This document shows positions 31,307 to 49,494 of a DNA stretch of 64,000 nt, piece by piece (within the stretch, counting starts at the first letter, position 1; each line of letters begins with the position of its first letter). A model generated the notes under the pieces. That model was not told where the DNA came from and did not search any database. It saw nothing but the letters and a program-made list of their open reading frames with translations. The stretch is from the NCBI RefSeq assembly GCF_044647545.1, contig NZ_CP172818.1. One strand, written 5' to 3'. Source of the stretch: Escherichia coli (GTDB taxonomy: Bacteria > Pseudomonadota > Gammaproteobacteria > Enterobacterales > Enterobacteriaceae). The translations under genes were made by a program, and so were the position numbers.

Positions 31307-33340
31307 ATGACTCAAGTCGCGAAGAAAATTCTGGTGACGTGCGCACTGCCGTACGCTAACGGCTCAATCCACCTCGGCCATATGCTGGAGCACATCCAGG
31401 CTGATGTCTGGGTCCGTTACCAGCGAATGCGCGGCCACGAGGTCAACTTCATCTGCGCCGACGATGCCCACGGTACACCGATCATGCTGAAAGCTCAGCA
31501 GCTCGGTATCACCCCGGAGCAGATGATTGGCGAAATGAGTCAGGAGCATCAGACTGATTTCGCAGGCTTTAACATCAGCTATGACAACTATCACTCGACG
31601 CACAGTGAAGAGAACCGCCAGTTGTCAGAACTTATCTACTCTCGCCTGAAAGAAAACGGTTTTATTAAAAACCGCACTATTTCTCAGCTGTACGATCCGG
31701 AAAAAGGCATGTTCCTGCCGGACCGTTTTGTGAAAGGCACCTGCCCGAAATGTAAATCCCCGGATCAATACGGCGATAACTGCGAAGTCTGCGGCGCGAC
31801 CTACAGCCCGACTGAATTGATCGAGCCGAAATCGGTGGTTTCTGGCGCTACGCCGGTAATGCGTGATTCTGAACACTTCTTCTTTGATCTGCCCTCTTTC
31901 AGCGAAATGTTGCAGGCATGGACCCGCAGCGGTGCGTTGCAGGAGCAGGTGGCAAATAAAATGCAGGAGTGGTTTGAATCCGGCCTGCAACAGTGGGATA
32001 TCTCCCGCGACGCGCCGTACTTCGGTTTTGAAATTCCGAACGCGCCGGGTAAATATTTCTACGTCTGGCTGGATGCGCCGATTGGCTATATGGGTTCTTT
32101 CAAGAATCTGTGCGACAAGCGCGGCGACAGCGTAAGCTTCGATGAATACTGGAAGAAAGACTCCACCGCCGAGCTGTACCACTTCATCGGTAAAGATATT
32201 GTTTACTTCCACAGCCTGTTCTGGCCAGCAATGCTGGAAGGCAGCAACTTCCGCAAGCCGACCAACCTGTTTGTTCATGGCTATGTGACGGTGAACGGCG
32301 CGAAGATGTCTAAGTCTCGCGGTACCTTTATTAAGGCCAGCACCTGGCTGAATCATTTTGACGCCGACAGCCTGCGTTACTACTACACTGCGAAACTCTC
32401 TTCGCGCATTGATGATATCGATCTCAACCTGGAAGATTTCGTTCAGCGCGTGAATGCCGATATCGTTAACAAAGTGGTTAACCTGGCCTCTCGTAATGCG
32501 GGCTTTATCAACAAGCGTTTTGACGGCGTGCTGGCAAGCGAACTGGCTGACCCGCAGTTGTACAAAACCTTCACTGATGCCGCTGAAGTGATTGGTGAAG
32601 CGTGGGAAAGCCGCGAATTTGGTAAAGCAGTACGCGAAATCATGGCGCTGGCTGATCTGGCTAACCGCTATGTCGATGAACAGGCTCCGTGGGTGGTGGC
32701 AAAACAGGAAGGCCGCGATGCCGACCTGCAGGCAATTTGCTCAATGGGCATAAACCTGTTCCGCGTGCTGATGACTTACCTGAAGCCGGTACTGCCGAAA
32801 CTGACCGAGCGCGCAGAAGCATTCCTCAATACAGAACTGACCTGGGATGGTATCCAGCAACCGCTGCTGGGCCACAAAGTGAATCCGTTCAAAGCGCTGT
32901 ATAACCGCATCGATATGAAGCAGGTTGAAGCACTGGTGGAAGCGTCTAAAGAAGAAGTGAAAGCAGCTGCCGCGCCAATTACTGGCCCACTGGCAGATGA
33001 TCCGATTCAGGAAACCATCACCTTTGACGACTTCGCCAAAGTTGACCTGCGCGTGGCGCTGATCGAAAACGCAGAGTTTGTTGAAGGTTCTGACAAACTG
33101 CTGCGCCTGACGCTGGATCTCGGCGGTGAAAAACGCAATGTCTTCTCCGGCATTCGTTCTGCTTACCCGGATCCGCAGGCACTGATTGGTCGTCACACCA
33201 TTATGGTGGCTAACCTGGCACCACGTAAAATGCGCTTCGGTATCTCCGAAGGCATGGTGATGGCTGCCGGTCCTGGCGGGAAAGATATCTTCCTGCTAAG
33301 CCCGGATGCTGGTGCTAAACCGGGTCATCAGGTGAAATAA
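31307..33340 (+). CDS. metG: Methionyl-tRNA synthetase
   Basis: 677 aa from [28 protein letters not shown] (HIGH motif), KMSKS present, Zn knuckle CPKC...CEVC, C-terminal tRNA-binding domain. Confidence 0.95.
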
Positions 33341-33348
33341 TCCCCCTT

Positions 33349-33380
33349 CAAGGCGCTGCATCGACAGCGCCTTTTCTTTA
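33349..33380 (+). terminator. Rho-independent terminator of metG
   Basis: AAGGCGCTG-CATCGAC-AGCGCCTT hairpin followed by TTCTTTA. Confidence 0.7.
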
Positions 33381-33480
33381 TAAATTCCTAAAGTTGTTTT
33401 CTTGCGATTTTGTCTCTCTCTAACCCGCATAAATACTGGTAGCATCAGCATTCAACTGGATAAAATTACAGGGATGCAGA

Positions 33481-36400
33481 ATGAAACACTTTATCTATCA
33501 GGACGAAAAATCACATAAATTCTGGGCGGTGGAGCAGCAGGGAAACGAGTTGCATATCTGTTGGGGAAAAGTTGGCACCAAAGGGCAAAACCAGGTAAAA
33601 AGTTTTGCGGATGCTGCGGCGGCGGAAAAAGCGGAGCTGAAGCTGATTGCGGAGAAGGTGAAGAAGGGATATGTGGAGCAAGCGAAGGATAATTCTTTGC
33701 AACCTTCCCAAACGGTAACGGACTCTCTCAAGGTAGCGGACTTATCCACCATTATTCAGGAACAACCCTCTTTCGTAGCAGAAACCCGTGCGGCTGACAA
33801 AAATACAGACGTTATTTTACCGTGGCTGGCAAAAGATATTGCTGTCGTTTTTCCGCTTGAAGTCGTACCCACCACCTTAAGCCATCGCCGCTTTCCCGGA
33901 GATCCTGTTACACCTGTAGATAAATTAACCCAGTTACGTCGCTTAGCCTGTGGCGTGTCGCAACGGGATAACAAAACAGCTACATTTGACTTCAGCGCCT
34001 GTACTTTAGAGTGGCAAAACTTCATCGCTCAGGCGATCGATCTGATTAACAGCCCGAAAACGACAAAATTACCATCACCGGTAATGGCTGTACTCGCGGC
34101 ACTTGAACTGCACTGTACGAGATATAAAGAGCGTGAGGATGTTATGGATCAGATTATTCAGGAAGGCGGTCTGGAATATGCTACTGATGTAATAATACAT
34201 CTTCAACAAATATCTATTGAATGGGATTATGTCAACAATAATATTGTTTTCCTGTCGTCTGGCATTTCACCTGATTACTTGCAGCAATATTCCAGCTTTG
34301 AATTACGCCTACGTAAACATTTATCACTGGCGGAAGAGTCTCTCTGGCAAAAATGTGCACAAAAACTTATTGCCGCAGTTCCACATATTCCAGAATGGCG
34401 GCAACCATTAATTGCTTTGTTATTACCCGAAAAACCAGAAATTGCACATGAAATTGCCCAGCGTCTACTGGGGCAAAAGAAATTACCCTCGCTTGAGTGG
34501 CTAAAAATAGTGGCGACTGATGAGCACATTCTTGCCTCATTAGAAAAATATCACGAGCCATATGCCATTTTTGATGATTACTATTGTGGTGCGATATGGT
34601 CAGCCACCGTATTACAGGAGCAAGGTGTTGCAGCCCTGCCCCGATTTGCACCCTATGTCGCAAGTGACTACTGCGCCGATGTGTTGAGTCATATCAATCA
34701 TCCGTTCGCATTAACACTGCTTATACGTGTAGCCGGGCATACTAAACGCTGTCACGATCGAATGACGAAAGCCTGCGCTGCGTTCCCACACGCAGCACTG
34801 GCAGCACTGGCGGAACTTCTAGTGCAAAAAGAAGAGAATAGTTGGCGCATTATGCTAATGACGATGCTTATCTCGCAACCTACACTAGCAGAACAGGTCA
34901 TTCCCTGGCTTTCGACACCCGCAGTTGCAGTGCTGAAATCATGCCAGCAACAACTGAAACAGCCCTCAAACCATGCCAGTGCCGATCTACTGCCGGCCAT
35001 AGTAGTCTCCCCACCATGGCTTTCGAAAAAGAAAAAATCGCCGATTCCGGTGCTTGATTTAGCACCGCTCAACCTCGAATCCATATGCACAATAACCGAC
35101 ACAGAAGCTAAAGAGTTTCAAACTCATTGGGACTGGGAACCGCATAAGCCAGGTGAAGGTGCTAAAGATTTCCTTTACTCGCTGGGGTATCGCCGCTGGG
35201 ATTTTGACACATATAAATATATCGGCGCTTCTGACTCGGCAATTGACGCATGGGAACGTGAGGACTTCGCTACACTCATCCAAATGTTTAAAGCCCACCA
35301 TGCACCGTATCAGGGGGAGTGGCATCTCAACTCACTTCCCTTTTTACCTATGCAAAAAGCGATTAAACTATGGGAATTTCTCAGCAAAGAGCCGCATACC
35401 GCGGTAAAACCTGTCATGCTTTATTTGCGACTGGCAGGTATGAGTGGTTTTCTACACTCGTTTTCACGCTACCCTCAAGAAGGTTTTGCGGTTGCTAATT
35501 ATTTTGCCGCAACGGAACTGGCTCCTGCCGTCGCCCGCGCCTTTAACAAACTCAAAACTCTACGACAAGACGCCCGCACCTGGCTGCTGAAATATCCGGA
35601 ACATGCCATTACCGGCCTGTTGCCTGCGGCACTCGGCAAAGCCGGTGAATCCCAGGATAACGCCCGTGCCGCTTTACGTATGTTGATTGAAAATGGTTAT
35701 CCGTCATTACTGCAAGAAATCGCCCAGCGTTATAACCAGCCGGAAGTAACCGATGCGGTGAACGCTCTACTTGCGCTCGATCCCTTAGATAATCACCCGA
35801 CTAAAATCCCGACACTTCCGGCCTTTTATCAGCCATCGCTCTGGACGCGCCCGGTATTAAAAGCAAACGCCCAATCACTGCCAGATAGCGCCCTCTTCCA
35901 CCTCGGTGAAATGCTCCGCTTCCCTCAGGAAGATACGCTGTATCCGGGGTTATTACAGGTGAAAGACGCCTGTACTGCCGACTCACTGGCTGAGTTTGCC
36001 TGGGATCTGTTTACCGCCTGGCAGACCGCTGGCGTGCCGTCGAAAGAGAGCTGGGCGTTCACTGCATTAGGTGTTCTTGGCAACGGTGACACCGCCCGCA
36101 AACTGACGCCATTAATCCGCGCCTGGCCTGGCGAATCTCAGCATAAACGTGCCACCGTTGGGTTGGATATTCTCGCTGCTATCGGCAGCGATATCGCCCT
36201 GATGCAGCTTAACGGCATCGCCCAGAAACTGAAATTCAAAGCCTTACAGGAGCGGGCGAAAGAAAAAATTGCCGACATTGCCGAAAGTCGCGAACTCACA
36301 GTGGCAGAACTTGAAGATCGGTTAGCACCGGATCTCGGTCTGGATGATAACGGTTCGCTGCTGCTGGATTTCGGGCCACGGCAGTTCACCGTCAGCTTTG

Positions 36401-37269
36401 ATGAAACCTTAAAACCGTTTGTGCGTGATGCTTCCGGCAGCCGCCTGAAAGACTTGCCTAAACCGAACAAAAGCGATGATGAAACCCAAGCGAACGATGC
36501 AGTTAACCGCTACAAACTGTTGAAAAAAGATGCGCGTACCGTTGCCGCCCAGCAGGTAGCAAGGCTGGAATCCGCCATGTGCCTACGCCGCCACTGGTCG
36601 CCGGAAAACTTCCAGCTATTCCTGGTTGAGCATCCGCTGGTTCGCCACTTAACCCGCCGTCTGATTTGGGGCGTTTATAGCACCGAAAACGAGCTACTGG
36701 CCTGTTTCCGGGTGGCAGAAGATAACAGCTACAGCACCGCTGACGATGATCTTTTCACCCTGCCGGAAGGCGATATCTCTATTGGTATTCCTCACGTTCT
36801 GGAAATATCACCGACGGATGCCGCCGCCTTTGGTCAGCTTTTTGCCGACTACGAACTTTTACCGCCGTTCCGTCAGCTCGACCGCAACAGTTATGCCCTG
36901 ACTGAAGTCGAACGCAACGCCAGCGAACTAACCCGCTGGGCAGGCAGAAAATGCCCGAGCGGTCGGGTTATGGGGCTGTCGAATAAAGGCTGGGTGCGTG
37001 GTGAACCGCAGGACGGTGGCTGGATCGGCTGGATGATCAAACCTCTGGGCCGCTGGTCATTAATCATGGAAATCGATGAAGGATTTGCAGTTGGTATGTC
37101 GCCAGCCGAACTCAGTGCCGAGCAACTCTTAAGCAAGCTGTGGCTATGGGAAGGCAAAGCAGAAAGCTATGGCTGGGGGAGTCATTCAACACAGGAAGCG
37201 CAGTTCTCCGCACTCGATGACATCACCGCCAGCGAGTTGATTAACGATATTGAAGCCCTGTTTGAATAA
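33481..37269 (+). CDS. molR: Giant WGR-domain + DUF4132 protein MolR (intact form of the K-12 molR/yehG-yehH pseudogene)
   Basis: 1262 aa single ORF; N-terminal WGR-like segment (HKFWAVEQQGNELHICWGKVGTKGQ); remainder collinear with yehI. Confidence 0.85.
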   Translation: MKHFIYQDEKSHKFWAVEQQGNELHICWGKVGTKGQNQVKSFADAAAAEKAELKLIAEKVKKGYVEQAKDNSLQPSQTVTDSLKVADLSTIIQEQPSFVAETRAADKNTDVILPWLAKDIAVVFPLEVVPTTLSHRRFPGDPVTPVDKLTQLRRLACGVSQRDNKTATFDFSACTLEWQNFIAQAIDLINSPKTTKLPSPVMAVLAALELHCTRYKEREDVMDQIIQEGGLEYATDVIIHLQQISIEWDYVNNNIVFLSSGISPDYLQQYSSFELRLRKHLSLAEESLWQKCAQKLIAAVPHIPEWRQPLIALLLPEKPEIAHEIAQRLLGQKKLPSLEWLKIVATDEHILASLEKYHEPYAIFDDYYCGAIWSATVLQEQGVAALPRFAPYVASDYCADVLSHINHPFALTLLIRVAGHTKRCHDRMTKACAAFPHAALAALAELLVQKEENSWRIMLMTMLISQPTLAEQVIPWLSTPAVAVLKSCQQQLKQPSNHASADLLPAIVVSPPWLSKKKKSPIPVLDLAPLNLESICTITDTEAKEFQTHWDWEPHKPGEGAKDFLYSLGYRRWDFDTYKYIGASDSAIDAWEREDFATLIQMFKAHHAPYQGEWHLNSLPFLPMQKAIKLWEFLSKEPHTAVKPVMLYLRLAGMSGFLHSFSRYPQEGFAVANYFAATELAPAVARAFNKLKTLRQDARTWLLKYPEHAITGLLPAALGKAGESQDNARAALRMLIENGYPSLLQEIAQRYNQPEVTDAVNALLALDPLDNHPTKIPTLPAFYQPSLWTRPVLKANAQSLPDSALFHLGEMLRFPQEDTLYPGLLQVKDACTADSLAEFAWDLFTAWQTAGVPSKESWAFTALGVLGNGDTARKLTPLIRAWPGESQHKRATVGLDILAAIGSDIALMQLNGIAQKLKFKALQERAKEKIADIAESRELTVAELEDRLAPDLGLDDNGSLLLDFGPRQFTVSFDETLKPFVRDASGSRLKDLPKPNKSDDETQANDAVNRYKLLKKDARTVAAQQVARLESAMCLRRHWSPENFQLFLVEHPLVRHLTRRLIWGVYSTENELLACFRVAEDNSYSTADDDLFTLPEGDISIGIPHVLEISPTDAAAFGQLFADYELLPPFRQLDRNSYALTEVERNASELTRWAGRKCPSGRVMGLSNKGWVRGEPQDGGWIGWMIKPLGRWSLIMEIDEGFAVGMSPAELSAEQLLSKLWLWEGKAESYGWGSHSTQEAQFSALDDITASELINDIEALFE

Positions 37270-37278
37270 GGAAAGAAC

Positions 37279-40200
37279 ATGGACAAGGAATTACCGTGGC
37301 TGGCGGATAACGCCCAACTGGAACTGAAATATAAAAAAGGCAAAACACCACTCAGCCATCGCAATTGGCCGGGCGAACCGGTGCCTGTTATCACTGAAAA
37401 CCTCATCCAGACACTGGGTGATAAATTGCTACACATTGCTGAGAAGAAAAAAAACATTGTCTGGCGTTATGAAAATTTTTCACTGGAATGGCAGTCCGCC
37501 ATCACGCAGGCCATCAACTTGATCGGCGAGCACAAACCCTCAATTCCGGCCCGGACAATGGCGGCGCTAGCCTGTATCGCGCAAAATGATAGCCAACAGT
37601 TACTCGACGAAATCGTCCAACAAGAGGGACTGGAATATGCGACTGAAGTGGTGATTGCACGCCAGTTTATTGTACGGTGTTATGAGAGTGATCCTCTGGT
37701 AGTAACATTGCAGTATCAGAAGGAGGACTATGGCTATGGCTATGGCTATGGTTATCGCTCAGAAACCTATAACGAATTCGATCTCCGACTGCGTAAGCAT
37801 CTCTCTCTGGCAGAGGAAAGCTGCTGGCAGCGTTGCGCCGACAAACTCATTGCCGCACTGCCAGGACTACCCCAAGTTCGCCGTCCTTTTATTGCACTCA
37901 TCCTCCCGGAAAAACCAGAAATCGCCAATGAGTTGGTAGGCCTTGAATGCCCGTGGACTCATTTTCATTCTAAGGAGTGGTTAAAAGTTGTTGCTACTGA
38001 CCACAGGGCAGTGGGAAAACTCGAACGCTACTGGAGCCAGGATATATTTAGCGATCGCGAAGCCAGCTACATGTCGCATGAAAACCACTTCGGCTACGCG
38101 GCCTGCGCCGCCCTTTTGCGCGAACAAGGAATTGCAGCCGTTCCACGCCTCGCGATGTATGCCCATAAAGAAGATTGCGGTAGCCTGCTGGTAAAAATTA
38201 ACCATCCGCAGGTCATCCGCACCCTGCTGTTAGTTGCTGATAAAAACAAACCCAGCCTGCAACGTGTGGCTAAATACAGTAAAAACTTCCCCCATGCGAC
38301 GCTTGCCGCACTGGCAGAGCTTCTGGCGTTAAAAGAACCGCCTGCACGCCCTGGTTATCCAATCATCGAAGACAAAAAGCTGCCTGCACAGCAAAAAGCT
38401 CGAGATGAATACTGGCGTACGCTGTTACAAACGCTGATGGCATCGCAGCCACAACTGGCAGAAGAGGTGATGCCGTGGTTAAGTACTCAAGCCCAGGCAG
38501 TGCTGGATAGTTATTTATCGGCACCGCCCAAAACGGTTATTGATAGCACCGATAACATCCAAATGCCTGAAATCCTCGTTTCACCACCGTGGCGTAGTAA
38601 GAAAAAAATGACAGTTCCACGTCTTGATTTGGCACCGTTCGAATTAACGCCGCAAGTTTACTGGCAACCAGGCGAACGAGAGAGGCTTGCCGCCACTGAG
38701 TCTGCCCGTTATTTCAGCACGGAATCTCTTGCGGAACGCATGGAACAAAAAAGTGGACGAGTTGTATTACAGGAGCTGGGTTTTGGAGATGATGTATGGC
38801 TGTTTTTGAATTATATACTCCCCGGAAAACTGGATGCTGCACGCAATTCACTCATTGTTCAGTGGCATTACTACCCAGGGCGGGTTGAAGAGATCATGAA
38901 TGGCTGGAGCTCCCCGGAAGCTCAATTAGCAGAACAGGCGCTTCGCAACGGTCACGTAGAAGTGTTAATTAACATATGGGAAAATGACAGCTACTCACGC
39001 TATCGTCGGGAAAAGAGTATCTGGAACCTGTATTTATTGGCGCAGTTGCCGCGTGAGATGGCTTTGACTTTCTGGCTACGTATCAATGAGAAAAAGCATC
39101 TGTCTGCGGGAGAGGACTATTTTCTCAGTATCTTCGGATTGGATGCTCTACCAGGTCTGCTGTTGGCTTTTTCACATCGTCCAAAAGAAACATTTCCATT
39201 AATTTTAAATTTCGGCGCAACAGAACTGGCCCTGCCCGTTGCCCGCGTCTGGCGACGTTTCGCGGCGCAGCGTGATCTGGCTCGCCAGTGGATTTTACAT
39301 TGGTCGGAACATACAGCTACTGCACTTATCCCTCTTGTCTTCACCAAATCCAGCGATAATAGCGAAGCTGCATTACTTGCCCTGCGTTTACTTTACGAAC
39401 AGGGACATGGCGAGTTACTGCAAACCGTGGCAAACCGCTGGCAGCGTACAGATGTATGGCCTGCCCTGGAGCAATTACTTAAACAGAGTCCAATAGAGAT
39501 TTACCCGACACGCATTCCAAAAGCCCCTGATTTCTGGCAGCCGGCAATGTGGTCCAGACCGAGACTTATCACGAATAATCAACCTGTTACTGATGATGCT
39601 CTGGAAATTATCGGCGAAATGCTGCGCTTTACCCAGGGCGGACGTTTTTATTGTGGGCTGGAACAACTGAAAACGTTCTGCCAGCCACAAACGCTGGCCG
39701 CTTTTGCCTGGGATCTCTTTACCGCGTGGCAACAAGTTGGCGCCCCCGCAAAAGACAACTGGGCATTTCTGGCGTTAAGTCTCTTCGGTGACGAAAGCAC
39801 GGCTCGGGATCTGACAACACAGATCCTCGCCTGGCCACAGGAAGGCAAATCTGCCCGTGCCGTCAGTGGCCTGAACATACTTACCCTGATGAATAATGAT
39901 ATGGCGCTGATACAGCTGCATCATATATCGCAACGGGCGAAATCCCGTCCCTTACGTGATAACGCGGCGGAATTTCTTCAGGTGGTCGCAGAAAATCGTG
40001 GACTAAGCCAGGAAGAGTTAGCGGACAGATTAGTCCCAACACTGGGCCTGGATGATCCGCAGGCGTTGATATTTGATTTTGGTCCCCGGCAGTTTACCGT
40101 TCGCTTCGATGAAAACCTCAACCCGGTTATCTTTGATCAGCAAAACGTTCGCCAGAAAAGCATTCCCCGGTTGCGCGCCGATGACGATCAGCTGAAAGCG

Positions 40201-40923
40201 CCCGAGGCTCTGGCCCGACTTAAAGGGCTAAAAAAAGATGCCACTCAGGTGAGCAAAAACCTGCTCCCGCGTCTTGAAACAGCCCTACGCACCACCCGAC
40301 GCTGGTCGCTGGCAGATTTTCATTCTCTGTTTGTTAATCATCCCTTTACCCGTCTGGTTACCCAGCGATTAATATGGGCGGTTTATCCAGCAAATGAACC
40401 GCGTCGTTTACTCAACGCCTTTCGTGTGGCCGCAGAGGGGGAATTCTGCAACGCACAAGATGAGCCAATTGACCTGCCTGCCGATGCCCTGATTGGCATT
40501 GCCCACCCGTTAGAAATGACAGCAGAAATGCGCAGTGAATTTGCACAGCTTTTTGCCGATTACGAAATTATGCCGCCTTTTCGCCAGTTGACGCGGCGCA
40601 CAGTGCTGCTCACGCCTGACGAGTCAGCCAGTAATAGTTTGAATCGCTGGGAAGGTAAATCTGCTACCGTTGGGCAACTTATGGGAATGCGATACAAAGG
40701 CTGGGAGTCAGGCTATGAGAACGCATTTGTCTATGACCTGGGCGAGTACCGGCTGGTCCTTAAGTTTTCATCCGGTTTTAACCACTACAATGTTGATAGC
40801 AAAGCGCTAATGAGCTTCCGTTCTCTTCATGTATACCGTGACAATAAATCTGTCACTTTTGCCGAACTTGATGTGTTTGATTTGAGTGAAGCGTTAAGCG
40901 CACCCGACGTCATTTTCCATTAA
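37279..40923 (+). CDS. yehI: Giant DUF4132 protein YehI, tandem paralog of MolR lacking the WGR domain
   Basis: 1214 aa; long collinear similarity to MolR (DLRLRKHLSLAEES.WQ.CA.KLIAA.P ... FPHA.LAALAELL ... FGPRQFTV.FDE); internal GYGYGYGY repeat. Confidence 0.85.
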   Translation: MDKELPWLADNAQLELKYKKGKTPLSHRNWPGEPVPVITENLIQTLGDKLLHIAEKKKNIVWRYENFSLEWQSAITQAINLIGEHKPSIPARTMAALACIAQNDSQQLLDEIVQQEGLEYATEVVIARQFIVRCYESDPLVVTLQYQKEDYGYGYGYGYRSETYNEFDLRLRKHLSLAEESCWQRCADKLIAALPGLPQVRRPFIALILPEKPEIANELVGLECPWTHFHSKEWLKVVATDHRAVGKLERYWSQDIFSDREASYMSHENHFGYAACAALLREQGIAAVPRLAMYAHKEDCGSLLVKINHPQVIRTLLLVADKNKPSLQRVAKYSKNFPHATLAALAELLALKEPPARPGYPIIEDKKLPAQQKARDEYWRTLLQTLMASQPQLAEEVMPWLSTQAQAVLDSYLSAPPKTVIDSTDNIQMPEILVSPPWRSKKKMTVPRLDLAPFELTPQVYWQPGERERLAATESARYFSTESLAERMEQKSGRVVLQELGFGDDVWLFLNYILPGKLDAARNSLIVQWHYYPGRVEEIMNGWSSPEAQLAEQALRNGHVEVLINIWENDSYSRYRREKSIWNLYLLAQLPREMALTFWLRINEKKHLSAGEDYFLSIFGLDALPGLLLAFSHRPKETFPLILNFGATELALPVARVWRRFAAQRDLARQWILHWSEHTATALIPLVFTKSSDNSEAALLALRLLYEQGHGELLQTVANRWQRTDVWPALEQLLKQSPIEIYPTRIPKAPDFWQPAMWSRPRLITNNQPVTDDALEIIGEMLRFTQGGRFYCGLEQLKTFCQPQTLAAFAWDLFTAWQQVGAPAKDNWAFLALSLFGDESTARDLTTQILAWPQEGKSARAVSGLNILTLMNNDMALIQLHHISQRAKSRPLRDNAAEFLQVVAENRGLSQEELADRLVPTLGLDDPQALIFDFGPRQFTVRFDENLNPVIFDQQNVRQKSIPRLRADDDQLKAPEALARLKGLKKDATQVSKNLLPRLETALRTTRRWSLADFHSLFVNHPFTRLVTQRLIWAVYPANEPRRLLNAFRVAAEGEFCNAQDEPIDLPADALIGIAHPLEMTAEMRSEFAQLFADYEIMPPFRQLTRRTVLLTPDESASNSLNRWEGKSATVGQLMGMRYKGWESGYENAFVYDLGEYRLVLKFSSGFNHYNVDSKALMSFRSLHVYRDNKSVTFAELDVFDLSEALSAPDVIFH

Positions 40924-40983
40924 AACACAGCGGGCAGTGATGCGACTGCCCGTTATTAACACGACCTGCCACCGGGGGAAGCG

Positions 40984-41304
40984 ATGATCGTGCAAAAAGA
41001 GCTGGTCACTATTTACGATTATGAGGCCCCTGTACCTGAAGAGCCGTTTTCCTTCAGACTTGAGATCCATAAATGCTCTGAATTATTTACAGGTTCCATC
41101 TACCGGCTGGAGCGATTCCGGCTACATCCAACATTTCATCAACGTGATCGAGAGGATATCGACCCGCTAATAAATGATGCGTTGATTTATATAAGAGATG
41201 AGTTTATTGATGAGCGAAAATTACGGGGCGAATCACCAGAAACGGTAATAGCCATTTTTAATCGTGAACTACAGAATATATTCAACCAAGAAATAGAAAA
41301 ATAG
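40984..41304 (+). CDS. yehK: Small uncharacterized protein YehK
   Basis: 106 aa; no recognisable domain; AT-rich codon usage unlike neighbours; hairpin terminator immediately downstream (~41309-41336). Confidence 0.7.
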   Translation: MIVQKELVTIYDYEAPVPEEPFSFRLEIHKCSELFTGSIYRLERFRLHPTFHQRDREDIDPLINDALIYIRDEFIDERKLRGESPETVIAIFNRELQNIFNQEIEK

Positions 41305-41469
41305 CTTTATTAAAGGGGGAAACGGTATTCCCCTTTAGATGTGTTTTATTTTCCCGTTACTCAAAAAAATAAATAAACCGAAAAAAAGCCACTAATAGCT
41401 CCAGTACGGAAATAAGCAGGGTTAATTTTTTGTCAGTGTGTCCATCCCTTCTCTTTATAAAGGAGGGCA

Positions 41470-41560
41470 ACACCACTTTTTACCTACCCCCCCCTTTATT
41501 TTTTTTATTCGAACCATTTCCCCCCCGAAGGCCCCCCCCCCCCCCCCCCAACCCTTGAAA
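41470..41560. other. Anomalous low-complexity stretch with poly-C (17 nt), poly-T and C-rich runs; probable sequencing/assembly artefact
   Basis: Direct reading: ...tacctacccccccctttattttttttattcgaaccatttcccccccgaaggcccccccccccccccccaaccc...; same character as the 3856-4550 anomaly. Confidence 0.55.
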
Positions 41561-41704
41561 TGGGTTCGATCCGGCGCAACGTCCCAACAGTCAGGATTAT
41601 AAATCTCATTATCTTAATTGCAACGGGGTCCACCGATGGTTATAATTCGTTCGTTGGAACACGATGTTGCACAGGCCGTGGTGTTAGGCCTGAAAGTAGT
41701 AAAT

Positions 41705-41738
41705 AAAAGAACCTGCCTCACCAGCAGGTTTTTTTATT
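41705..41738 (+). terminator. Rho-independent terminator-like hairpin upstream of yehL
   Basis: AACCTGC-CTCACCA-GCAGGTT followed by T7; ~110 bp upstream of yehL start. Confidence 0.55.
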
Positions 41739-41846
41739 TACTGTGATCTGTTTCCCAGATATTTTCCGCTCAAACAACTAATGCGCCAAACATTTATTGC
41801 GCGTAAAATATCGTTTATTTCATTAATACATTTCAGGGATGAATAT

Positions 41847-42935
41847 ATGTCACCGCAGAATAATCATCTGCAGCGTCCGCCTGTCGCTGTGTTATACGCC
41901 GATGAACTGGCAAAATTAAAACAAAATGATCACGCACCTTGCCCGCCCGGTTGGCAGTTAAGTTTGCCTGCGGCCCGTGCTTTTATCCTTGGCGATAGCG
42001 CGCAAAATATTAGCCGTAAAGTGGTGATTAGTCCCTCCGCTGTCGAACGCATGTTAGTCACTCTTGCCACCGGGCGCGGTTTGATGTTGGTGGGGGAACC
42101 TGGCACCGCAAAATCTCTCCTGTCTGAATTACTGGCAACCGCTATTAGCGGCGATGCCGGGTTAACCATCCAGGGCGGCGCATCTACCACTGAAGATCAA
42201 ATCAAGTACGGCTGGAACTACGCTCTGCTTATCAACCATGGTCCGTCAACGGAAGCACTGGTCCCTGCCCCGCTTTACCAGGGAATGCGCGACGGCAAAA
42301 TCGTCCGTTTTGAAGAGATAACGCGTACACCGCTGGAAGTACAAGACTGTCTGTTAGGTATGCTTTCTGACAGGGTAATGACGGTGCCGGAACTCACTGG
42401 TGAAGCCAGTCAGCTCTATGCGCGAGAAGGCTTTAATATTATTGCCACTGCCAATACCCGCGATCGCGGCGTCAATGAAATGAGCGCTGCGCTAAAGCGT
42501 CGATTCGATTTTGAAACGGTCTTTCCGATTATGGATTTCGCCCAGGAACTGGAACTGGTCGCCAGTGCTTCGGCGCGTTTATTGGCCCATAGTGGCATTC
42601 CGCATAAAGTGCCTGACGCGGTACTGGAGTTACTGGTACGCACCTTCCGCGATCTGCGTGCCAACGGCGAAAAGAAAACGTCAATGGATACACTGACAGC
42701 GATTATGTCCACCGCTGAAGCCGTGAACGTAGCCCACGCTGTGGGTGTCCGCGCCTGGTTTTTAGCGAATCGCGCAGGTGAGCCAGCCGATCTGGTGGAC
42801 TGTATTGCCGGAACCATCGTTAAAGATAACGAAGAAGATCGCGCTCGTCTGCGCCGTTACTTCGAACAGCGTGTCGCCACACATAAAGAAGCTCACTGGC
42901 AGGCTTATTATCAAGCCCGCCACCGCCTGCCGTGA
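41847..42935 (+). CDS. yehL: MoxR-family AAA+ ATPase YehL
   Basis: 362 aa from MSPQNNHLQRPP; Walker A LVGEPGTAKS; Walker B region IVRFEEITRTPLEVQDCLLGML; MoxR-like C-terminal helical region. Confidence 0.88.
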   Translation: MSPQNNHLQRPPVAVLYADELAKLKQNDHAPCPPGWQLSLPAARAFILGDSAQNISRKVVISPSAVERMLVTLATGRGLMLVGEPGTAKSLLSELLATAISGDAGLTIQGGASTTEDQIKYGWNYALLINHGPSTEALVPAPLYQGMRDGKIVRFEEITRTPLEVQDCLLGMLSDRVMTVPELTGEASQLYAREGFNIIATANTRDRGVNEMSAALKRRFDFETVFPIMDFAQELELVASASARLLAHSGIPHKVPDAVLELLVRTFRDLRANGEKKTSMDTLTAIMSTAEAVNVAHAVGVRAWFLANRAGEPADLVDCIAGTIVKDNEEDRARLRRYFEQRVATHKEAHWQAYYQARHRLP

Positions 42936-42945
42936 GGAAAGATGC

Positions 42946-45225
42946 ATGAGCGAGCCGTTAATTGTCGGCATCCGGCATCATAGCCCGGCCTGCGCCCGGC
43001 TGGTGAAATCGTTAATCGAAAGCCAGCGGCCACGATACGTGTTGATTGAAGGCCCGGCTGATTATAATGACCGGGTAGACGAACTGTTTTTAGCCCACCA
43101 GCTTCCGGTAGCTATTTACAGTTATTGCCAGTATCAGGACGGTGCAGCCCCCGGGCGTGGTGCCTGGACGCCATTTGCTGAATTTTCGCCGGAGTGGCAG
43201 GCGCTACAAGCCGCTCGTCGTATTCAGGCACAAACTTACTTCATCGATTTGCCTTGCTGGGCGCAGAGTGAAGAAGAGGACGATTCGCCTGATACGCATG
43301 AGGAAAGCCAGACCTTGCTGCTGCATGCCACCCGCATGGATAACAGCGACACCCTGTGGGATCACTTGTTCGAAGATGAAAGCCAGCAAACTGCATTACC
43401 CTCTGCACTGGCGCACTATTTTGCCCAACTGCGGGGCGACTCCCCCGGAGATGCTCTCAATCGTCAGCGCGAAGCCTTTATGGCCCGCTGGATTGCATGG
43501 GCGATGCAGCAAAATAATGGCGACGTGTTAGTTGTCTGCGGTGGCTGGCACGCTCCGGCACTGGCAAAAATGTGGCGCGAATGCCCGCAAGAAATTAACA
43601 AGCCAGAATTGCCGTCGCTGGCAGATGCCGTTACAGGTTGCTATCTCACGCCATACAGTGAAAAGCGCCTTGATGTGCTGTCAGGATACCTTTCAGGAAT
43701 GCCTGCCCCGGTCTGGCAAAACTGGTGCTGGCGGTGGGGCTTGCAGCAGGCAGGTGAACAACTACTGAAAACGGTTCTTACCCGTTTGCGCCAGCACCAC
43801 TTGCCTGCTTCAACAGCGGATATGGCTGCCGCTCATCTGCATGCGATGGCACTGGCACAGTTGCGCGGTCATACACTACCGTTACGCACTGACTGGCTGG
43901 ATGCTATAGCCGGCTCGCTGATCAAAGAAGCCCTGAACGCGCCGTTGCCGTGGAGCTATCGCGGCGTTATTCATCCCGATACCGATCCGATTCTGCTAAC
44001 GTTGATAGACACATTAGCGGGTGACGGATTCGGTAAACTTGCCCCCTCGACGCCACAGCCACCTCTGCCAAAAGATGTCACCTGCGAACTGGAACGTACC
44101 GGAATCTCTTTTCCGGCGGAGCTTACCTTAAATCGCTTTACCCCCGATGGACTGGCGCAAAGTCAGGTGTTACATCGGCTGGTAATACTGGAGATCCCAG
44201 GGGTTGTGCGCCAGCAGGGAAGTACACTGACACTTGCAGGCAACGGTGAAGAACGCTGGAAATTAACCCGCCCGCTTAGCCAACATGCGGCATTAATTGA
44301 GGCCGCCTGCTTTGGTGCCACACTCCAGGAAGCCGCACGCCATAAATTAGAAGCCGATATGCTGGACGCGGGTGGAATCGGCAGTATCACCACATGTCTT
44401 AGCCAGGCGGCGTTAGCGGGTCTGGCGTCCTTCAGTCAACAATTACTGGAGCAACTTACATTATTAATCGCCCAGGAAAATCAGTTTGCCGAAATGGGCC
44501 AGGCGCTGGAAGTGCTATACGCCTTATGGCGGCTGGATGAAATTAGCGGTATGCAAGGCGCGCAGATATTACAGACGACGTTATGCGCAGCTATCGATCG
44601 CACACTCTGGCTGTGTGAATCCAACGGCAGACCGGATGAAAAGGAGTTTCACGCTCACCTGCATAGCTGGCAAGCGCTTTGCCATATCCTGCGCGATCTA
44701 CATAGCGGCGTTAATTTACCCGGCGTTTCGCTTTCTGCGGCGGTAGCCTTACTGGAGCGCCGCAGTCAGGCGATTCATGCCCCGGCGCTGGATCGCGGCG
44801 CGGCTCTTGGCGCACTAATGCGTCTGGAACATCCCAACGCCAGTGCCGAAGCGGCGCTGACGATGCTGGCGCAGTTATCCCCGGCACAATCCGGCGAGGC
44901 GCTGCACGGTTTGCTGGCATTAGCCCGTCATCAACTGGCCTGTCAGCCGGCATTTATCGCCGGTTTCAGTAGTCATTTAAATCAACTGAGTGACGACGAT
45001 TTTATTAACGCCCTGCCCGATTTACGCGCGGCGATGGCCTGGCTACCACCACGAGAACGCGGGACGCTGGCGCATCAGGTGCTTGAGCATTACCAGCTCG
45101 CACAGCTTCCCATTTCAGCGCTGCAAATGCCGTTGCATTGTCCACCGCAAGCCATTGCACATCATCAACAACTCGAACAGCAGGCACTGGCATCGCTGCA
45201 ACACTGGGGAGTTTTCCATGTCTGA
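42946..45225 (+). CDS. yehM: Large uncharacterized protein YehM
   Basis: 759 aa from MSEPLIVGIRHHSPA (ATG at 42946, 10 bp after yehL stop); no domain I can assign; stop overlaps yehP start. Confidence 0.8.
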   Translation: MSEPLIVGIRHHSPACARLVKSLIESQRPRYVLIEGPADYNDRVDELFLAHQLPVAIYSYCQYQDGAAPGRGAWTPFAEFSPEWQALQAARRIQAQTYFIDLPCWAQSEEEDDSPDTHEESQTLLLHATRMDNSDTLWDHLFEDESQQTALPSALAHYFAQLRGDSPGDALNRQREAFMARWIAWAMQQNNGDVLVVCGGWHAPALAKMWRECPQEINKPELPSLADAVTGCYLTPYSEKRLDVLSGYLSGMPAPVWQNWCWRWGLQQAGEQLLKTVLTRLRQHHLPASTADMAAAHLHAMALAQLRGHTLPLRTDWLDAIAGSLIKEALNAPLPWSYRGVIHPDTDPILLTLIDTLAGDGFGKLAPSTPQPPLPKDVTCELERTGISFPAELTLNRFTPDGLAQSQVLHRLVILEIPGVVRQQGSTLTLAGNGEERWKLTRPLSQHAALIEAACFGATLQEAARHKLEADMLDAGGIGSITTCLSQAALAGLASFSQQLLEQLTLLIAQENQFAEMGQALEVLYALWRLDEISGMQGAQILQTTLCAAIDRTLWLCESNGRPDEKEFHAHLHSWQALCHILRDLHSGVNLPGVSLSAAVALLERRSQAIHAPALDRGAALGALMRLEHPNASAEAALTMLAQLSPAQSGEALHGLLALARHQLACQPAFIAGFSSHLNQLSDDDFINALPDLRAAMAWLPPRERGTLAHQVLEHYQLAQLPISALQMPLHCPPQAIAHHQQLEQQALASLQHWGVFHV

Positions 45226-46354
45226 ACTGAACGATCTTCTGACCACCCGTGAGCTACAACGCTGGCGATTAATTCTTGGCGAAGCGGCAGAAACGACGCT
45301 TTGTGGGCTGGATGACAACGCCCGGCAGATAGACCACGCGCTGGAGTGGCTGTACGGGCGCGATCCTGAACGGCTCCAGCGTGGTGAACGCTCCGGTGGA
45401 TTAGGTGGCTCAAATCTCACCACCCCTGAGTGGATCAACAGTATTCACACGCTGTTTCCGCAACAGGTGATTGAACGGCTGGAAAGCGATGCCGTACTGC
45501 GCTACGGCATTGAAGATGTGGTGACAAATCTCGACGTGCTGGAACGTATGCAGCCTTCGGAAAGCCTGCTACGCGCCGTTTTGCACACCAAACATCTGAT
45601 GAATCCCGAAGTACTGGCTGCCGCCCGCCGGATAGTACGCCAGGTTGTGGAAGAAATTATGGCGCGACTGGCAAAGGAAGTTCGTCAGGCTTTTTCTGGT
45701 GTCCGCGATCGCCGTCGCCGCTCATTTATTCCACTGGCGCGAAACTTTGATTTCAAAAGTACTCTGCGCGCCAACCTGCAACACTGGCACCCGCAACACG
45801 GCAAGTTGTATATCGAATCCCCCCGCTTTAACAGCCGCATTAAACGCCAAAGCGAACAATGGCAACTGGTCTTACTGGTTGATCAAAGCGGATCAATGGT
45901 GGACTCGGTGATCCACTCAGCGGTGATGGCGGCCTGTTTATGGCAGTTACCCGGTATTCGTACCCATCTGGTGGCGTTTGACACCAGCGTGGTTGATCTC
46001 ACGGCAGACGTTGCCGATCCGGTAGAGTTATTAATGAAAGTGCAATTAGGCGGCGGAACCAATATCGCCAGTGCCATGGAATATGGTCGGCAACTTATTG
46101 AACAACCAGCGAAAAGCGTCATCATCCTCGTGAGCGATTTTTACGAAGGGGGTTCATCATCATTACTGACGCATCAGGTGAAAAAGTGTGTCCAGAGCGG
46201 CATCAAAGTGCTGGGACTGGCGGCGCTCGATAGCACCGCAACACCTTGCTATGACCACGATACGGCCCAGGCGCTAGTTAATGTCGGCGCACAAATAGCC
46301 GCCATGACACCGGGCGAGCTGGCGGCCTGGCTTGCGGAGAATCTTCAGTCATGA
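45218..46354 (+). CDS. yehP: von Willebrand factor A (VWA) domain protein YehP
   Basis: 378 aa; C-terminal VWA with MIDAS DxSxS (LVLLVDQSGSM), further ...GGGTN... and ILVSDFYEGG; start ATG overlaps yehM stop (ATGTCTGA). Confidence 0.88.
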   Translation: MSELNDLLTTRELQRWRLILGEAAETTLCGLDDNARQIDHALEWLYGRDPERLQRGERSGGLGGSNLTTPEWINSIHTLFPQQVIERLESDAVLRYGIEDVVTNLDVLERMQPSESLLRAVLHTKHLMNPEVLAAARRIVRQVVEEIMARLAKEVRQAFSGVRDRRRRSFIPLARNFDFKSTLRANLQHWHPQHGKLYIESPRFNSRIKRQSEQWQLVLLVDQSGSMVDSVIHSAVMAACLWQLPGIRTHLVAFDTSVVDLTADVADPVELLMKVQLGGGTNIASAMEYGRQLIEQPAKSVIILVSDFYEGGSSSLLTHQVKKCVQSGIKVLGLAALDSTATPCYDHDTAQALVNVGAQIAAMTPGELAAWLAENLQS

Positions 46355-48351
46355 ATTCACTACGTCCGGAATTATTAGAACTGACGCCGCAGGCCCTGAC
46401 GGCGTTAAGCAATGCCGGTTTTGTTAAACGCAGTCTTAAGGAACTGGAAAATGGCAACGTCCCGGAAATCAGCCATAAGAACGGCGCTTTAATCGCCACC
46501 TTCAGTGACGGTGTCCGTACCCAGCTGGCGAACGGTCAGGCACTGAAAGAGGCTCAATGCAGCTGCGGGGCCAGCGGCATGTGCCGCCATCGCGTGATGC
46601 TGGTTTTAAGTTATCAGCGACTTTGCGCCACCACCCAGCCTACGGAAAAAGAAGAAGAGTGGGATCCGGCAATCTGGCTAGAAGAACTGGCTACCCTTCC
46701 CGATGCCACCCGCAAACGCGCGCAGGCGCTGGTCGCTAAAGGCATCACCATTGAGTTGTTCTGTACGCCGGGCGAAATTCCCTCTGCCCGCTTACCGATG
46801 AGCGATGTACGTTTTTATTCCCGCAGCAGCATTCGTTTCGCACGCTGTGATTGTATTGAAGGAACACTTTGCGAACATGTTGTGCTGGCAGTACAGGCCT
46901 TTGTCCAGGCCAAAGCGCAGCAAGCAGAATTTAACCATTTAATCTGGCAGATGCGCAGCGAACACGTCACATCATCTGACGATCCGTTTGCCAGCGAAGA
47001 GGGCAACGCGTGTCGTCAATATGTTCAGCAACTAAGCCAGGCATTATGGCTGAGCGGCATCAGCCAGCCGCTTATTCATTACGAGGCCGCTTTCAGCCGC
47101 GCGCAGCAAGCGGCGGAACGCTGCAACTGGCGCTGGGTAAGTGAATCACTACGACAGCTACGGGCAAGCGTTGATGCCTTCCACGCCCGCGCCAGTCACT
47201 ATCATGCCGGAGAATGCTTACGTCAGCTTGCGGCATTAAACAGTCGATTAAATTGCGCACAAGAGATGGCGCGGCGCGACAGTGTTGGTGAAGTTCCTCC
47301 TGTGCCGTGGCGCACGGTCGTTGGCGCTGGCATTGCCGGAGAAGCAAAGCTTGATCATCTGCGGCTGGTGTCTTTAGGTATGCGTTGCTGGCAGGATATT
47401 GAGCAGTATGGTTTACGCATCTGGTTCACCGATCCCGACACCGGCAGTATTTTGCATCTTTCGCGTAGTTGGCCGAGAAGCGAACAGGAAAATTCACCGG
47501 CAGCGACGCGTCGGCTGTTTAGTTTTCTGGCTGGCGCACTGGCAGGTGGGCAAATTGTTTCACAAGCAGCAAAACGCAGTGCCGATGGCGAACTGCTATT
47601 AGCTACCCGCAACCGCTTGAGTAGTGTTGTGCCGCTGTCGCCAGACGCCTGGCAAATGTTGAGCGCGCCATTGCGCCAGCCGGGCATTGTGGCTTTGCGG
47701 GAATATTTACGCCAGCGTCCCCCCGCCTGCATACGGCCTCTTAATCAGGTGGATAACTTATTTATTCTGCCAGTCGCTGAGTGTATTTCACTCGGTTGGG
47801 ATAGCAGCCGCCAGACACTGGATGCGCAGGTAATCAGCGGCGAAGGTGAAGATAACGTGCTGACATTATCCCTACCAGCCTCTGCCTGTTCGCCCTTTGC
47901 TGTTGAACGCATGGCGGCGCTTTTGCAACAAACAGACGACCCCGTGAGTCTGGTTTCTGGCTTTGTCAGCTTTGTAGAGGGGCAATTGACACTGGAACCA
48001 CGGGTGATGATGACAAAAAACCGCGCCTGGGCGCTGGACGCAGAAACTGCGCCTGTGGCACCGCTACCTTCTGCCAGCGTTTTGCCTGTGCCGTCTACCG
48101 CTCATCAGTTGCTGATGCGCTGCCAGGCGTTACTTATTCAACTGCTCCATAACGGCTGGCGCTATCAGGAACAGAGTGCTATTGGTCAGGCAGAGTTGCT
48201 GGCGAATGACCTCACCGCGGTGGGTTTTTATCGGCTGGCACATGTGTTGGCACAATTTCGTAATACAGAAAGCGAGGCACGGGTAGAAGCAATGAATAAC
48301 GGTGTTTTGATTTGCGAACAATTATTCCCCATGCTTCAGCAACAAGGATGA
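46351..48351 (+). CDS. yehQ: SWIM zinc-finger domain protein YehQ
   Basis: 666 aa as ORF; two CxC...CxH SWIM-like motifs (CSCGASGMCRHRVM and CDCIEGTLCEHVVLAV); start overlaps yehP stop (ATGA). Confidence 0.85.
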   Translation: MNSLRPELLELTPQALTALSNAGFVKRSLKELENGNVPEISHKNGALIATFSDGVRTQLANGQALKEAQCSCGASGMCRHRVMLVLSYQRLCATTQPTEKEEEWDPAIWLEELATLPDATRKRAQALVAKGITIELFCTPGEIPSARLPMSDVRFYSRSSIRFARCDCIEGTLCEHVVLAVQAFVQAKAQQAEFNHLIWQMRSEHVTSSDDPFASEEGNACRQYVQQLSQALWLSGISQPLIHYEAAFSRAQQAAERCNWRWVSESLRQLRASVDAFHARASHYHAGECLRQLAALNSRLNCAQEMARRDSVGEVPPVPWRTVVGAGIAGEAKLDHLRLVSLGMRCWQDIEQYGLRIWFTDPDTGSILHLSRSWPRSEQENSPAATRRLFSFLAGALAGGQIVSQAAKRSADGELLLATRNRLSSVVPLSPDAWQMLSAPLRQPGIVALREYLRQRPPACIRPLNQVDNLFILPVAECISLGWDSSRQTLDAQVISGEGEDNVLTLSLPASACSPFAVERMAALLQQTDDPVSLVSGFVSFVEGQLTLEPRVMMTKNRAWALDAETAPVAPLPSASVLPVPSTAHQLLMRCQALLIQLLHNGWRYQEQSAIGQAELLANDLTAVGFYRLAHVLAQFRNTESEARVEAMNNGVLICEQLFPMLQQQG

Positions 48352-48475
48352 AATAGTGCTTTTTACTAAGAGTTCTACTCCAGTTCCGGACTGCTCACGC
48401 CACAGTATTAGGCATATCCTATATAGCCCCTGGTGAGAGTCACCAGTTCCTTGATTAAATAAAATGGAGTTTTAC

Positions 48476-48937
48476 ATGAAGGCTTTCAATAAGCTGTTTT
48501 CCCTTGTTGTTGCATCTGTTCTGGTTTTCTCTCTTGCTGGCTGCGGTGACAAAGAAGAATCAAAGAAATTCAGCGCCAATCTGAACGGCACTGAAATTGC
48601 CATTACCTATGTCTACAAAGGTGACAAGGTGCTTAAGCAATCTTCTGAAACCAAAATTCAATTTGCCTCCATTGGTGCAACCACCAAAGAAGATGCCGCC
48701 AGGACACTTGAGCCGTTAAGCGCCAAATACAAAAACATCGCGGGTGTTGAAGAAAAATTAACCTATACCGATACCTACGCGCAGGAAAACGTGACTATTG
48801 ATATGGAAAAAGTGGATTTTAAAGCCCTGCAGGGTATTTCAGGAATCAACGTTTCTGCTGAAGATGCCAAAAAAGGTATCACTATGGCGCAAATGGAACT
48901 GGTGATGAAAGCCGCTGGTTTTAAAGAAGTGAAATAA
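48476..48937 (+). CDS. yehR: Lipoprotein YehR (DUF1307)
   Basis: 153 aa from MKAFNKLFSLVVASVLVFSLAGC (lipobox LAGC). Confidence 0.85.
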   Translation: MKAFNKLFSLVVASVLVFSLAGCGDKEESKKFSANLNGTEIAITYVYKGDKVLKQSSETKIQFASIGATTKEDAARTLEPLSAKYKNIAGVEEKLTYTDTYAQENVTIDMEKVDFKALQGISGINVSAEDAKKGITMAQMELVMKAAGFKEVK

Positions 48938-48941
48938 TCTG

Positions 48942-48972: not shown

Positions 48973-48977
48973 CCGTC

Positions 48978-49448: not shown

Positions 49449-49494
49449 GAGGCCTTCAGGTGTTGATGAGGCAAAAAGCCATTTTAGCAGTCTT

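Follow-up and report, generated by a model that had tools for sequence, protein, structure and literature searches.

What is the function of the seven genes that run from molR to yehQ in Escherichia coli? The genes of this cluster are among the largest uncharacterised ones in E. coli, and the question is posed here by a window of 64,000 nucleotides (nt) of contig NZ_CP172818.1 (NCBI RefSeq assembly GCF_044647545.1), in which an open reading frame (ORF) scan placed all seven ORFs (molR, yehI, yehK, yehL, yehM, yehP and yehQ), intact and on the + strand, at positions 33481-48351. An earlier note on this DNA had described a co-directional cluster between metG and yehR and had listed its parts as WGR/DUF4132 giants, a MoxR ATPase, a VWA protein with a metal-ion-dependent adhesion site (MIDAS) and a SWIM protein. 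Its coordinates are exact according to the ORFs and the RefSeq annotation, and the parts list is borne out by Pfam domains, taken as precomputed matches on identical proteins. We find that the cluster is a self-contained, horizontally transferable five-component machine, here named the Yeh system. Tentatively, we read it as a nucleic-acid-cued, ATP-driven remodelling and hydrolase complex with a partial connection to the SOS response in E. coli, a reading that we prefer to its rivals and hold to be somewhat short of probable. The cluster was already annotated and the YehL subfamily already named; new are the cross-phylum five-gene core, the fold of YehM, a region of YehQ that resembles oligonucleotide/oligosaccharide-binding (OB) folds, the SOS and zor-orz context, and the mosaicism of MolR.

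The case for a module comes from its recurrence. The YehM family comprises 2270 clusters at 50% identity, and of 100,044 genomes, one per species, at least 559 have a YehM relative, a patchy distribution. Eighty loci were fetched from Gamma- and Betaproteobacteria, Myxococcota and Actinobacteria, and their ORFs were searched with the window proteins. Across about 85 loci, the order DUF4132 (one to three copies), YehL, YehM, YehP, YehQ is kept in almost every case; a DUF4132 protein adjoins YehL/M/P/Q in nearly all of them, and nearly every complete locus keeps YehL, YehM, YehP and YehQ together. Seven Pfam-annotated neighbourhoods outside E. coli, whose YehM homologues show 31-48% identity, repeat the same set in unrelated contexts: a DUF4132 protein with or without WGR, an AAA_5 ATPase, a DUF5682 protein, a VWA_CoxE protein and a YehQ relative of ~650 amino acids (aa). 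Clustering of all flanking ORFs gave within-genus synteny only, with no sixth conserved gene and no client enzyme. YehM and YehP are naturally fused in some relatives, in proteins of ~1180 aa, and in the window the coding sequences of yehM and yehP share 8 nt and those of yehP and yehQ share 4 nt. The same order in unrelated contexts, the lack of a sixth family, the fusions and the overlaps therefore point to a self-contained module, and, judged from the sequences, the Yeh products very probably form a complex. The earlier note had also paired the MoxR ATPase and the MIDAS-VWA protein with large partners, which the linkage, the fusions and the overlapping start and stop codons support, and the co-occurrence analysis that it had proposed found the gene linkage conserved in all of these bacterial groups.

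The small protein YehK stands outside this set. No homologue was found in 84 non-E. coli loci, and from these searches yehK is an add-on of Escherichia and close relatives rather than a part of the conserved core. Within the core, mean column identity amounts to 66% for YehL, 67% for YehP, 39% for YehM, 34% for YehQ and 37% for the DUF4132 giants; YehM, YehQ and the giants evolve about twice as fast as YehL and YehP. Profile-profile comparison detected no shared domain between the giants and YehM, or between the giants and YehQ.

Relative to K-12, the ratio of nonsynonymous to synonymous substitution rates (dN/dS) is 0.04-0.19 for all yeh genes, the signature of purifying selection. Given this selection on all genes and a gene order kept across phyla, the cluster is not a chance assembly. 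A functionless, horizontally acquired relic, decaying in E. coli, would account for the frameshifts, stops and deletions that are scattered over several strains: K-12 has a frameshift in molR and a stop codon inside yehQ, only two of six annotated E. coli records are fully intact, with the other four damaged in differing genes, and ~26% of E. coli genomes cover <80% of the region. Yet all seven ORFs are intact in the window and also in FDAARGOS_497 and W21, dN/dS is low despite a dS of 0.13-0.21, the catalytic motifs are invariant across phyla, and, by cluster sizes in the protein collection, full-length sequences make up ~89% of E. coli-type YehM. The relic is contradicted by purifying selection and is extremely unlikely. 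The broken molR and yehQ of K-12 may explain the lack of a phenotype in decades of K-12 genetics.

YehL belongs to one of seven MoxR subfamilies, for which the name YehL has been published (PMC3893208). Residues G83, P85, G86, T87, K89, S90, N203, R218, R219 and R271, which cover the Walker A motif GxPGTxKS, the sensor and Arg positions, are invariant in 28 diverse homologues, as is the Walker B position R154-F-E156-E157, where the acidic pair is kept. The gene for YehP lies two genes 3' of yehL, the linkage of the two holds in nearly all of 84 loci, and the MIDAS residues D222, S224, S226, T249, T256, T281 and D307 of YehP are invariant in 26 homologues. A MoxR ATPase gene near a MIDAS-VWA gene is likewise found in RavA-ViaA, the other MoxR-VWA pair of E. 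coli, and in CbbQ-CbbO, NorQ-NorD and CoxD-CoxE. These pairs serve a known enzyme client, in most cases the product of a nearby gene or one already identified, whereas the Yeh pair is tied to DUF5682, SWIM and DUF4132 proteins without a linked client and differs from them by the E-E of its Walker B position.

Such pairs raise the alternative of a maturation chaperone for the insertion of metal or cofactor into a client enzyme, of the CoxD-CoxE, NorQ-NorD, CbbQ-CbbO or BchI-BchD type. All characterised MoxR-VWA pairs are maturation factors, the old name of molR is 'molybdate metabolism regulator', and YehP carries the Pfam domain VWA_CoxE; NCBIfam adds weak matches, far below cutoff, of YehP to a cobaltochelatase model and of YehL to GvpN. 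No client enzyme is linked in ~85 loci, however, and K-12, in which most molybdoenzyme genetics has been done, carries molR as a pseudogene. Moreover, maturation chaperones offer no precedent for WGR, SWIM, an OB-like region or a TIKI-like hydrolase, and the molybdenum genes of Deinococcus did not co-vary with its DUF4132 and WGR genes. We regard a role in maturation as very unlikely.

YehM, called domain-less in the earlier note, turns out to match Pfam DUF5682 at E 6e-99 and to have a recognisable fold. In its AlphaFold2 model (predicted local distance difference test, pLDDT, 91.5), the N-terminal domain adopts an alpha/beta fold with the parallel beta-sheet core common to the TIKI/TraB/ChaN/EreA superfamily, and is predicted from this model to be a putative hydrolase of the protease or esterase type. 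An alignment of 48 diverse homologues reveals the invariant residues R10-H11-(H12)-S13-P14, E35-G-P, H51, S81-P-E83, D101, R163, R175-E176 and G199-G-x-H202, a pattern resembling that of TIKI/TraB enzymes. Active members of the TIKI superfamily possess a 2His/2Glu site and a conserved basic residue (PMC6254334, the RRSP structure paper). In 48/48 YehM homologues H11, H202, E35, E83 or E176, and R10 or R175 occur in the order expected for 2His/2Glu plus a basic residue, as judged by alignment alone. The middle region resembles part of AAA+ proteins, with matches to BchI, ORC, MCM and dynein, and is possibly an AAA+ lid, and the C-terminus forms a HEAT-like solenoid with matches to symplekin, Scc2 and huntingtin. 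YehM gave no sequence match to any PDB chain, either as a single sequence or as a profile. The domain differs from TIKI, TraB-PrgY, ChaN, EreA/B, RRSP and HopBA1 in its fusion to a HEAT-like scaffold inside an AAA+/VWA machine; should this machine prove to serve immunity or the response to DNA damage, the TIKI fold would gain a new cellular context. The Yeh system thereby gains a candidate catalytic subunit with point-mutable H11, E35 and H202, besides a candidate nucleic-acid binder and a link to SOS.

The DUF4132 giants form the other end of the module. The WGR domain of MolR matches PDB entry 2ra8 at E 1.9e-16 (5.9e-24 with a profile) and the WGR domain of PARP3 at E 0.0095; in searches of all PDB chains with the single sequence and the profile, MolR was matched in this domain only. 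MolR thus has a WGR domain, of the kind known from PARPs, at its N-terminus, but has no PARP catalytic domain. The family alignment defines an architecture of WGR, a poorly conserved middle and a conserved C-terminal region of ~580 aa with DUF4132. YehI is 36% identical to MolR and has no WGR; tandem DUF4132 paralogues, in one to three copies, are typical of the family, and those in WGR-less loci show DUF4132 and faint HEAT signals only. Between about aa 500 and 700, the window allele of MolR is only ~50% identical to the K-12/W21 type, compared with 92-99% in the neighbouring segments.

A second Yeh-like module stands in tandem in some genomes (locus L007, 15598-23468; locus L094, 3-3591); in it a ~500-aa protein and a HEAT_2 protein of 580-693 aa take the place of the DUF4132 giant. 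There are hints, then, that the giants are interchangeable helical-repeat adaptors. As a single observation, L007 also has a gene with an ATP-dependent DNA ligase C-terminal domain nearby. In E. coli GPT24-01 (L092, 482-11788) there are three DUF4132 paralogues, the extra one being an upstream WGR-DUF4132 gene whose product is 47% identical to MolR; in the same locus a deletion that spans yehK and yehL has also taken the end of yehI and the beginning of yehM.

YehQ contains the motifs C70xCx5CxH80 and C166xCx5CxH176, which match Pfam SWIM at E 9.7e-4 and 0.21. The double SWIM reported in the earlier note is thus present in the window protein, but across the family only the first motif (C70-C72-C78-H80) is invariant, in 42/42 homologues. 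The structure model of YehQ (pLDDT 91.6) contains a beta-rich region, and the top Foldseek matches of this region are almost all tandem-OB DNA binders, namely the HIN domains of Ifi202, p202, MNDA and AIM2, RPA70 AB, LEF-3, POT1 and CST. Their scores are weak (E 1e-3 to 0.1, with probabilities of up to 0.99 and low template modelling scores), the likeness to HIN, RPA70 and POT1 tandem OB folds is purely structural, and a search of all PDB chains with the YehQ sequence and profile gave zero matches. On the strength of the model, YehQ is a candidate nucleic-acid-binding subunit.

A palindrome resembling a LexA box lies just upstream of molR. The site, AACTGGATAAAATTACAGGG, reads CTGG-N8-ACAG, with one mismatch to the LexA box; a scan for exact CTGT-N8-ACAG gave 0 matches. 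All 8 E. coli loci that were compared carry it, in one case with a lone spacer change, and molR is listed among the genes of the LexA regulon with a 'known SOS box' (PMC6590174). Farther downstream, the 542-bp spacer between yehK and yehL harbours zorO-orzO, a type I toxin-antitoxin locus. Terminators and divergent promoter-like sites occur in this spacer, orzO having a promoter-like site and a terminator of its own, so that molR-yehI-yehK and yehLMPQ are, from these features, probably separate transcription units. The earlier description of one co-directional block consequently stands for direction and order and fails for continuity, the spacer being occupied by the toxin-antitoxin locus. SOS control applies to molR and probably also to yehI and yehK; only for this upstream unit is it shown. 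As a family-wide feature SOS control was considered and rejected, the LexA box being confined to Escherichia. In Deinococcus radiodurans, DRA0166 (DUF4132) and DR2173 (WGR) are DdrO targets that are induced by mitomycin C via DdrO/IrrE.

From these parts a working scheme can be proposed. The DUF4132 giants, with WGR and a variable middle, and YehQ, with SWIM and its OB-like region, would act as sensing or targeting subunits, and their cue would be nucleic acid, for example DNA ends, single-stranded DNA, or damaged or foreign DNA. The MIDAS of YehP may grip an acidic residue of a partner, by analogy with the CbbQ-CbbO pair and with the AAA_5/MIDAS protein Midasin, while a YehL hexamer would remodel the assembly with ATP. 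Remodelling would then activate the putative YehM hydrolase, of protease or esterase type, or feed substrate to it, YehM being the catalytic output. Because molR-yehI-yehK is wired to SOS by its LexA box, the Yeh system most likely responds to DNA that is damaged or aberrant, be it the cell's own, in damage tolerance or repair, or that of an invader, in immunity. The nucleic-acid role envisaged in the earlier note gains some support from the confirmed WGR, the weakly OB-like region of YehQ, the LexA box with its SOS listing and the DNA-damage induction in Deinococcus.

Several observations weigh against this reading. About 2/3 of the loci have a WGR, Glycomyces and Actinomadura being examples of its absence, and 20/42 YehQ homologues have a complete second SWIM motif (C166-C168-C174-H176); with WGR missing in ~1/3 of the loci and SWIM 2 in half, the modules are therefore not all essential. 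The Walker B position of YehL carries E-E, compared with the canonical hhhhDE. The candidate active site of YehM was read from the alignment of homologues; Pfam TIKI-family models reach it at sub-threshold level only (ChaN in 3/48 and TraB in 1/48 homologues at E <= 0.1), and NCBIfam gave no match of YehM to TIKI families. Upstream of ~80 other loci, a search for LexA boxes (gamma-type with <=1 mismatch, actinobacterial with <=2) gave scattered, chance-level matches only. Finally, literature searches on yehL, yehM, yehP, yehQ, DUF4132, DUF5682 and the combination MoxR+SWIM+WGR found zero functional studies.

The same modules could serve protein-only remodelling or quality control, with WGR, SWIM and the OB-like region as protein adaptors. 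A protein client would be extracted, unfolded or processed by a machine loosely like Midasin/Rea1 or the proteasome regulatory particle, built from an AAA ATPase, a VWA protein, solenoids and a hydrolase. Among solved structures, YehL is closest in sequence to Midasin AAA modules, the MIDAS of YehP is intact, WGR is dispensable in the third of the loci noted above, and HEAT-like solenoids occur in the C-terminus of YehM, in the HEAT_2 partners of some loci and, faintly, in DUF4132 paralogues. Midasin has a MIDAS domain and pulls proteins off a large assembly during ribosome assembly. Like Yeh, Midasin/Rea1 combines AAA_5-type modules with a MIDAS domain; it is, by contrast, one giant polypeptide in which six AAA modules are joined, and it acts on pre-ribosomes, whereas Yeh is multi-subunit and includes a hydrolase-like subunit. 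Against a protein-only role stand the joint presence of three kinds of module, independent of one another and usually associated with nucleic acid, and the occurrence of family members in the DNA-damage regulons of two distant bacteria. We consider this alternative unlikely.

A further alternative is a dedicated immunity against phages or mobile elements, in which the variable giants and YehQ would sense the DNA or proteins of an invader, YehL-YehP would license, and YehM would kill phage or cell. SOS control is common among conflict genes, and the logic of sensor, NTPase and hydrolase fits. The patchy phylogeny, with contexts that differ by lineage, would be expected of such a system, as would the inactivating lesions in different genes of different E. 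coli strains, the one to three DUF4132 paralogues with a third in some E. coli, the mosaic segment of MolR, and a dS of the yeh genes above that of the right flank. Searches for a defence context brought up no genuine defence system. At E <= 0.01, PADLOC-DB v2.0.0 gave zero family matches for all seven proteins; PADLOC on 40 flanking ORFs from 22 genera returned three matches (a generic Ser/Thr kinase and two partial, weak ones) and zero systems; and eight Pfam-annotated neighbourhoods contained no defence genes, their contexts being metabolic, transport and regulatory. The cluster matches at this single chromosomal site in 5425/5426 complete E. coli genomes. The module is rare on plasmids, mostly on megaplasmids, and virtually absent from phages, and dN/dS gives zero sign of gene-wide positive selection.

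A phage link through PHROG was tried and rejected. Every Yeh protein has a near-identical PHROG, but the sole phage record is the VT1-Sakai prophage with chromosomal flanks: the record (AP000400, 1-2920) starts with chromosomal yehP, yehQ and yehV and covers only yehP and yehQ of the cluster. The PHROG matches are likeliest to be prophage records that overshoot into the chromosome, and the single match among viral contigs is E. coli chromosome sequence.

The closest published precedent for a conflict role also fits poorly. MoxR-vWA ternary conflict systems have VMAP or iSTAND partners, displacement of effectors and a fast-evolving vWA (Kaur et al. 2020, PMC7159879); the same paper does not mention YehL, SWIM, WGR, DUF4132 or this cluster. 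Like Yeh, they have a MoxR and vWA core with large partners, a strict order, occurrence in actinobacteria and myxobacteria, and paralogous copies per genome. The Yeh system has neither VMAP nor iSTAND and no variable effectors on its vWA; its partners are DUF5682, SWIM and DUF4132 proteins in a fixed architecture, with zero effector swapping across 84 loci. Nor is its vWA faster than its MoxR component, the column identities of YehP and YehL being alike over comparable taxon sets. The conflict or defence role suggested in the earlier note is thus not upheld: PADLOC matches and defence context are lacking, the genes are scarce on phages and plasmids, and the system is unlike the published MoxR-vWA ones. 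With this null defence context set against the patchiness, the paralogues, the mosaic MolR and the recurrent decay, we hold dedicated immunity to be doubtful. It nonetheless ranks first among the rivals, followed by protein-only remodelling, the cofactor chaperone and the relic.

A bolder reading, to which we also give a rather low chance, is that Yeh represents a new class of innate immunity or genome surveillance, in which polymorphic WGR-DUF4132 giants and a SWIM/OB protein would detect DNA that is foreign or broken and the MoxR-VWA motor would unleash a TIKI-family protease. If true, this class would be distinct from the catalogued defence systems and present in nearly all E. coli and in hundreds of soil species, and its silence in K-12 would be due only to the molR and yehQ pseudogenes. 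A machine for immunity or DNA damage would, if confirmed, constitute a new mechanistic branch of the MoxR-VWA family, which has so far comprised enzyme maturation and predicted conflict systems.

The features of the locus are collected in Table 1.

Table 1. Features of the molR-yehQ region, in positions of the 64,000-nt window or in residues of the encoded proteins
Feature	Position	Strand	Description
LexA (SOS) box-like palindrome AACTGGATAAAATTACAGGG	33455-33474	+	7 nt upstream of the molR ATG
molR	33481-37269	+	1262 aa; Pfam WGR + DUF4132
molR WGR	aa 1-80, 33481-33720	+	Pfam WGR
molR mosaic hypervariable segment	~aa 500-700, ~34978-35580	+	inside the poorly conserved middle region
molR C-terminal region	~aa 680-1262	+	strongly conserved; contains DUF4132
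yehI	37279-40923	+	1214 aa; DUF4132, no WGR
yehK	40984-41304	+	106 aa; zero Pfam matches
Spacer yehK/yehL	41305-41846	.	542 bp; zorO-orzO locus, promoter-like sites, terminators
Terminators	41310-41338; 41697-41743	.	terminator scan
zorO remnant	~41357-41445	-	alignment to relatives
Divergent promoter-like sites, for orzO and toxin mRNA	41596-41646	.	promoter scan
orzO antitoxin small RNA	41660-41735	+	Rfam RF02083, 98.9 bits
yehL	41847-42935	+	362 aa; Pfam AAA_5, MoxR-family AAA+ ATPase, 'YehL subfamily'
YehL Walker A GEPGTAKS	aa 83-90, 42093-42116	+	motif reading
YehL Walker B position R-F-E-E	aa 154-157, 42306-42317	+	motif reading
yehM	42946-45225	+	759 aa; Pfam DUF5682
YehM N-terminal TIKI/TraB/ChaN/EreA-like putative hydrolase	~aa 1-250, 42946-43695	+	
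YehM C-terminal HEAT-like solenoid	~aa 446-759	+	
yehP	45218-46354	+	378 aa; Pfam VWA_CoxE + VWA_2
YehP MIDAS D222-x-S-x-S226	45881-45895	+	intact motif
yehQ	46351-48351	+	666 aa; Pfam SWIM (faint)
YehQ SWIM 1	aa 56-88, 46516-46614	+	
YehQ SWIM 2	aa 160-183, 46828-46899	+	
YehQ beta-rich tandem-OB-like region	~aa 330-560, ~47338-48030	+	downstream of SWIMs and helical bundles

The gene names agree with the RefSeq annotation of the FDAARGOS_497 chromosome, which is 99.8% identical to the region and, as a near-identical chromosome, also supplies the flanks, metG on the left and yehR, yehS, btsR and btsS on the right. Identity of the region to K-12 is about 94%. The dS against K-12, in the range given above for the yeh genes, is 0.23 for apbC, 0.10 for metG and 0.04-0.07 for yehR, yehS, btsR and btsS, being higher over 30066-48351 and lower over 48464-51896; this contrast suggests that a haplotype block, old and inherited separately, ends at yehQ/yehR. 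In clade C2 sublineage L1a of E. coli sequence type ST131, the blaCTX-M-15 transposon TnMB1860 lies in the 'metG/DUF4132/yeh' region, which is disrupted in 184 isolates (PMC9334617).

Close relatives have, on the other strand of the yehK-yehL spacer, an intact gene for the ZorO toxin of 29 aa, whereas the K-12 spacer lacks a 251-bp toxin part and keeps the orzO-like part. In the window, the stretch at ~41335-41555 is anomalous when compared with FDAARGOS_497, to which the remainder of the 16 kb is 99.8% identical. Dozens of substitutions there tend toward homopolymers (poly-A, poly-T and ~18 consecutive C), 31 nt are deleted and zorO is frameshifted, as might result from poor assembly of this patch or from decay of the toxin gene. 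Farther to the left, the guanine-plus-cytosine content falls to 0.36-0.40 at 28000-30000, left of apbC, in a segment that is syntenic with the end of the yehD/yehE fimbrial operon in FDAARGOS_497.

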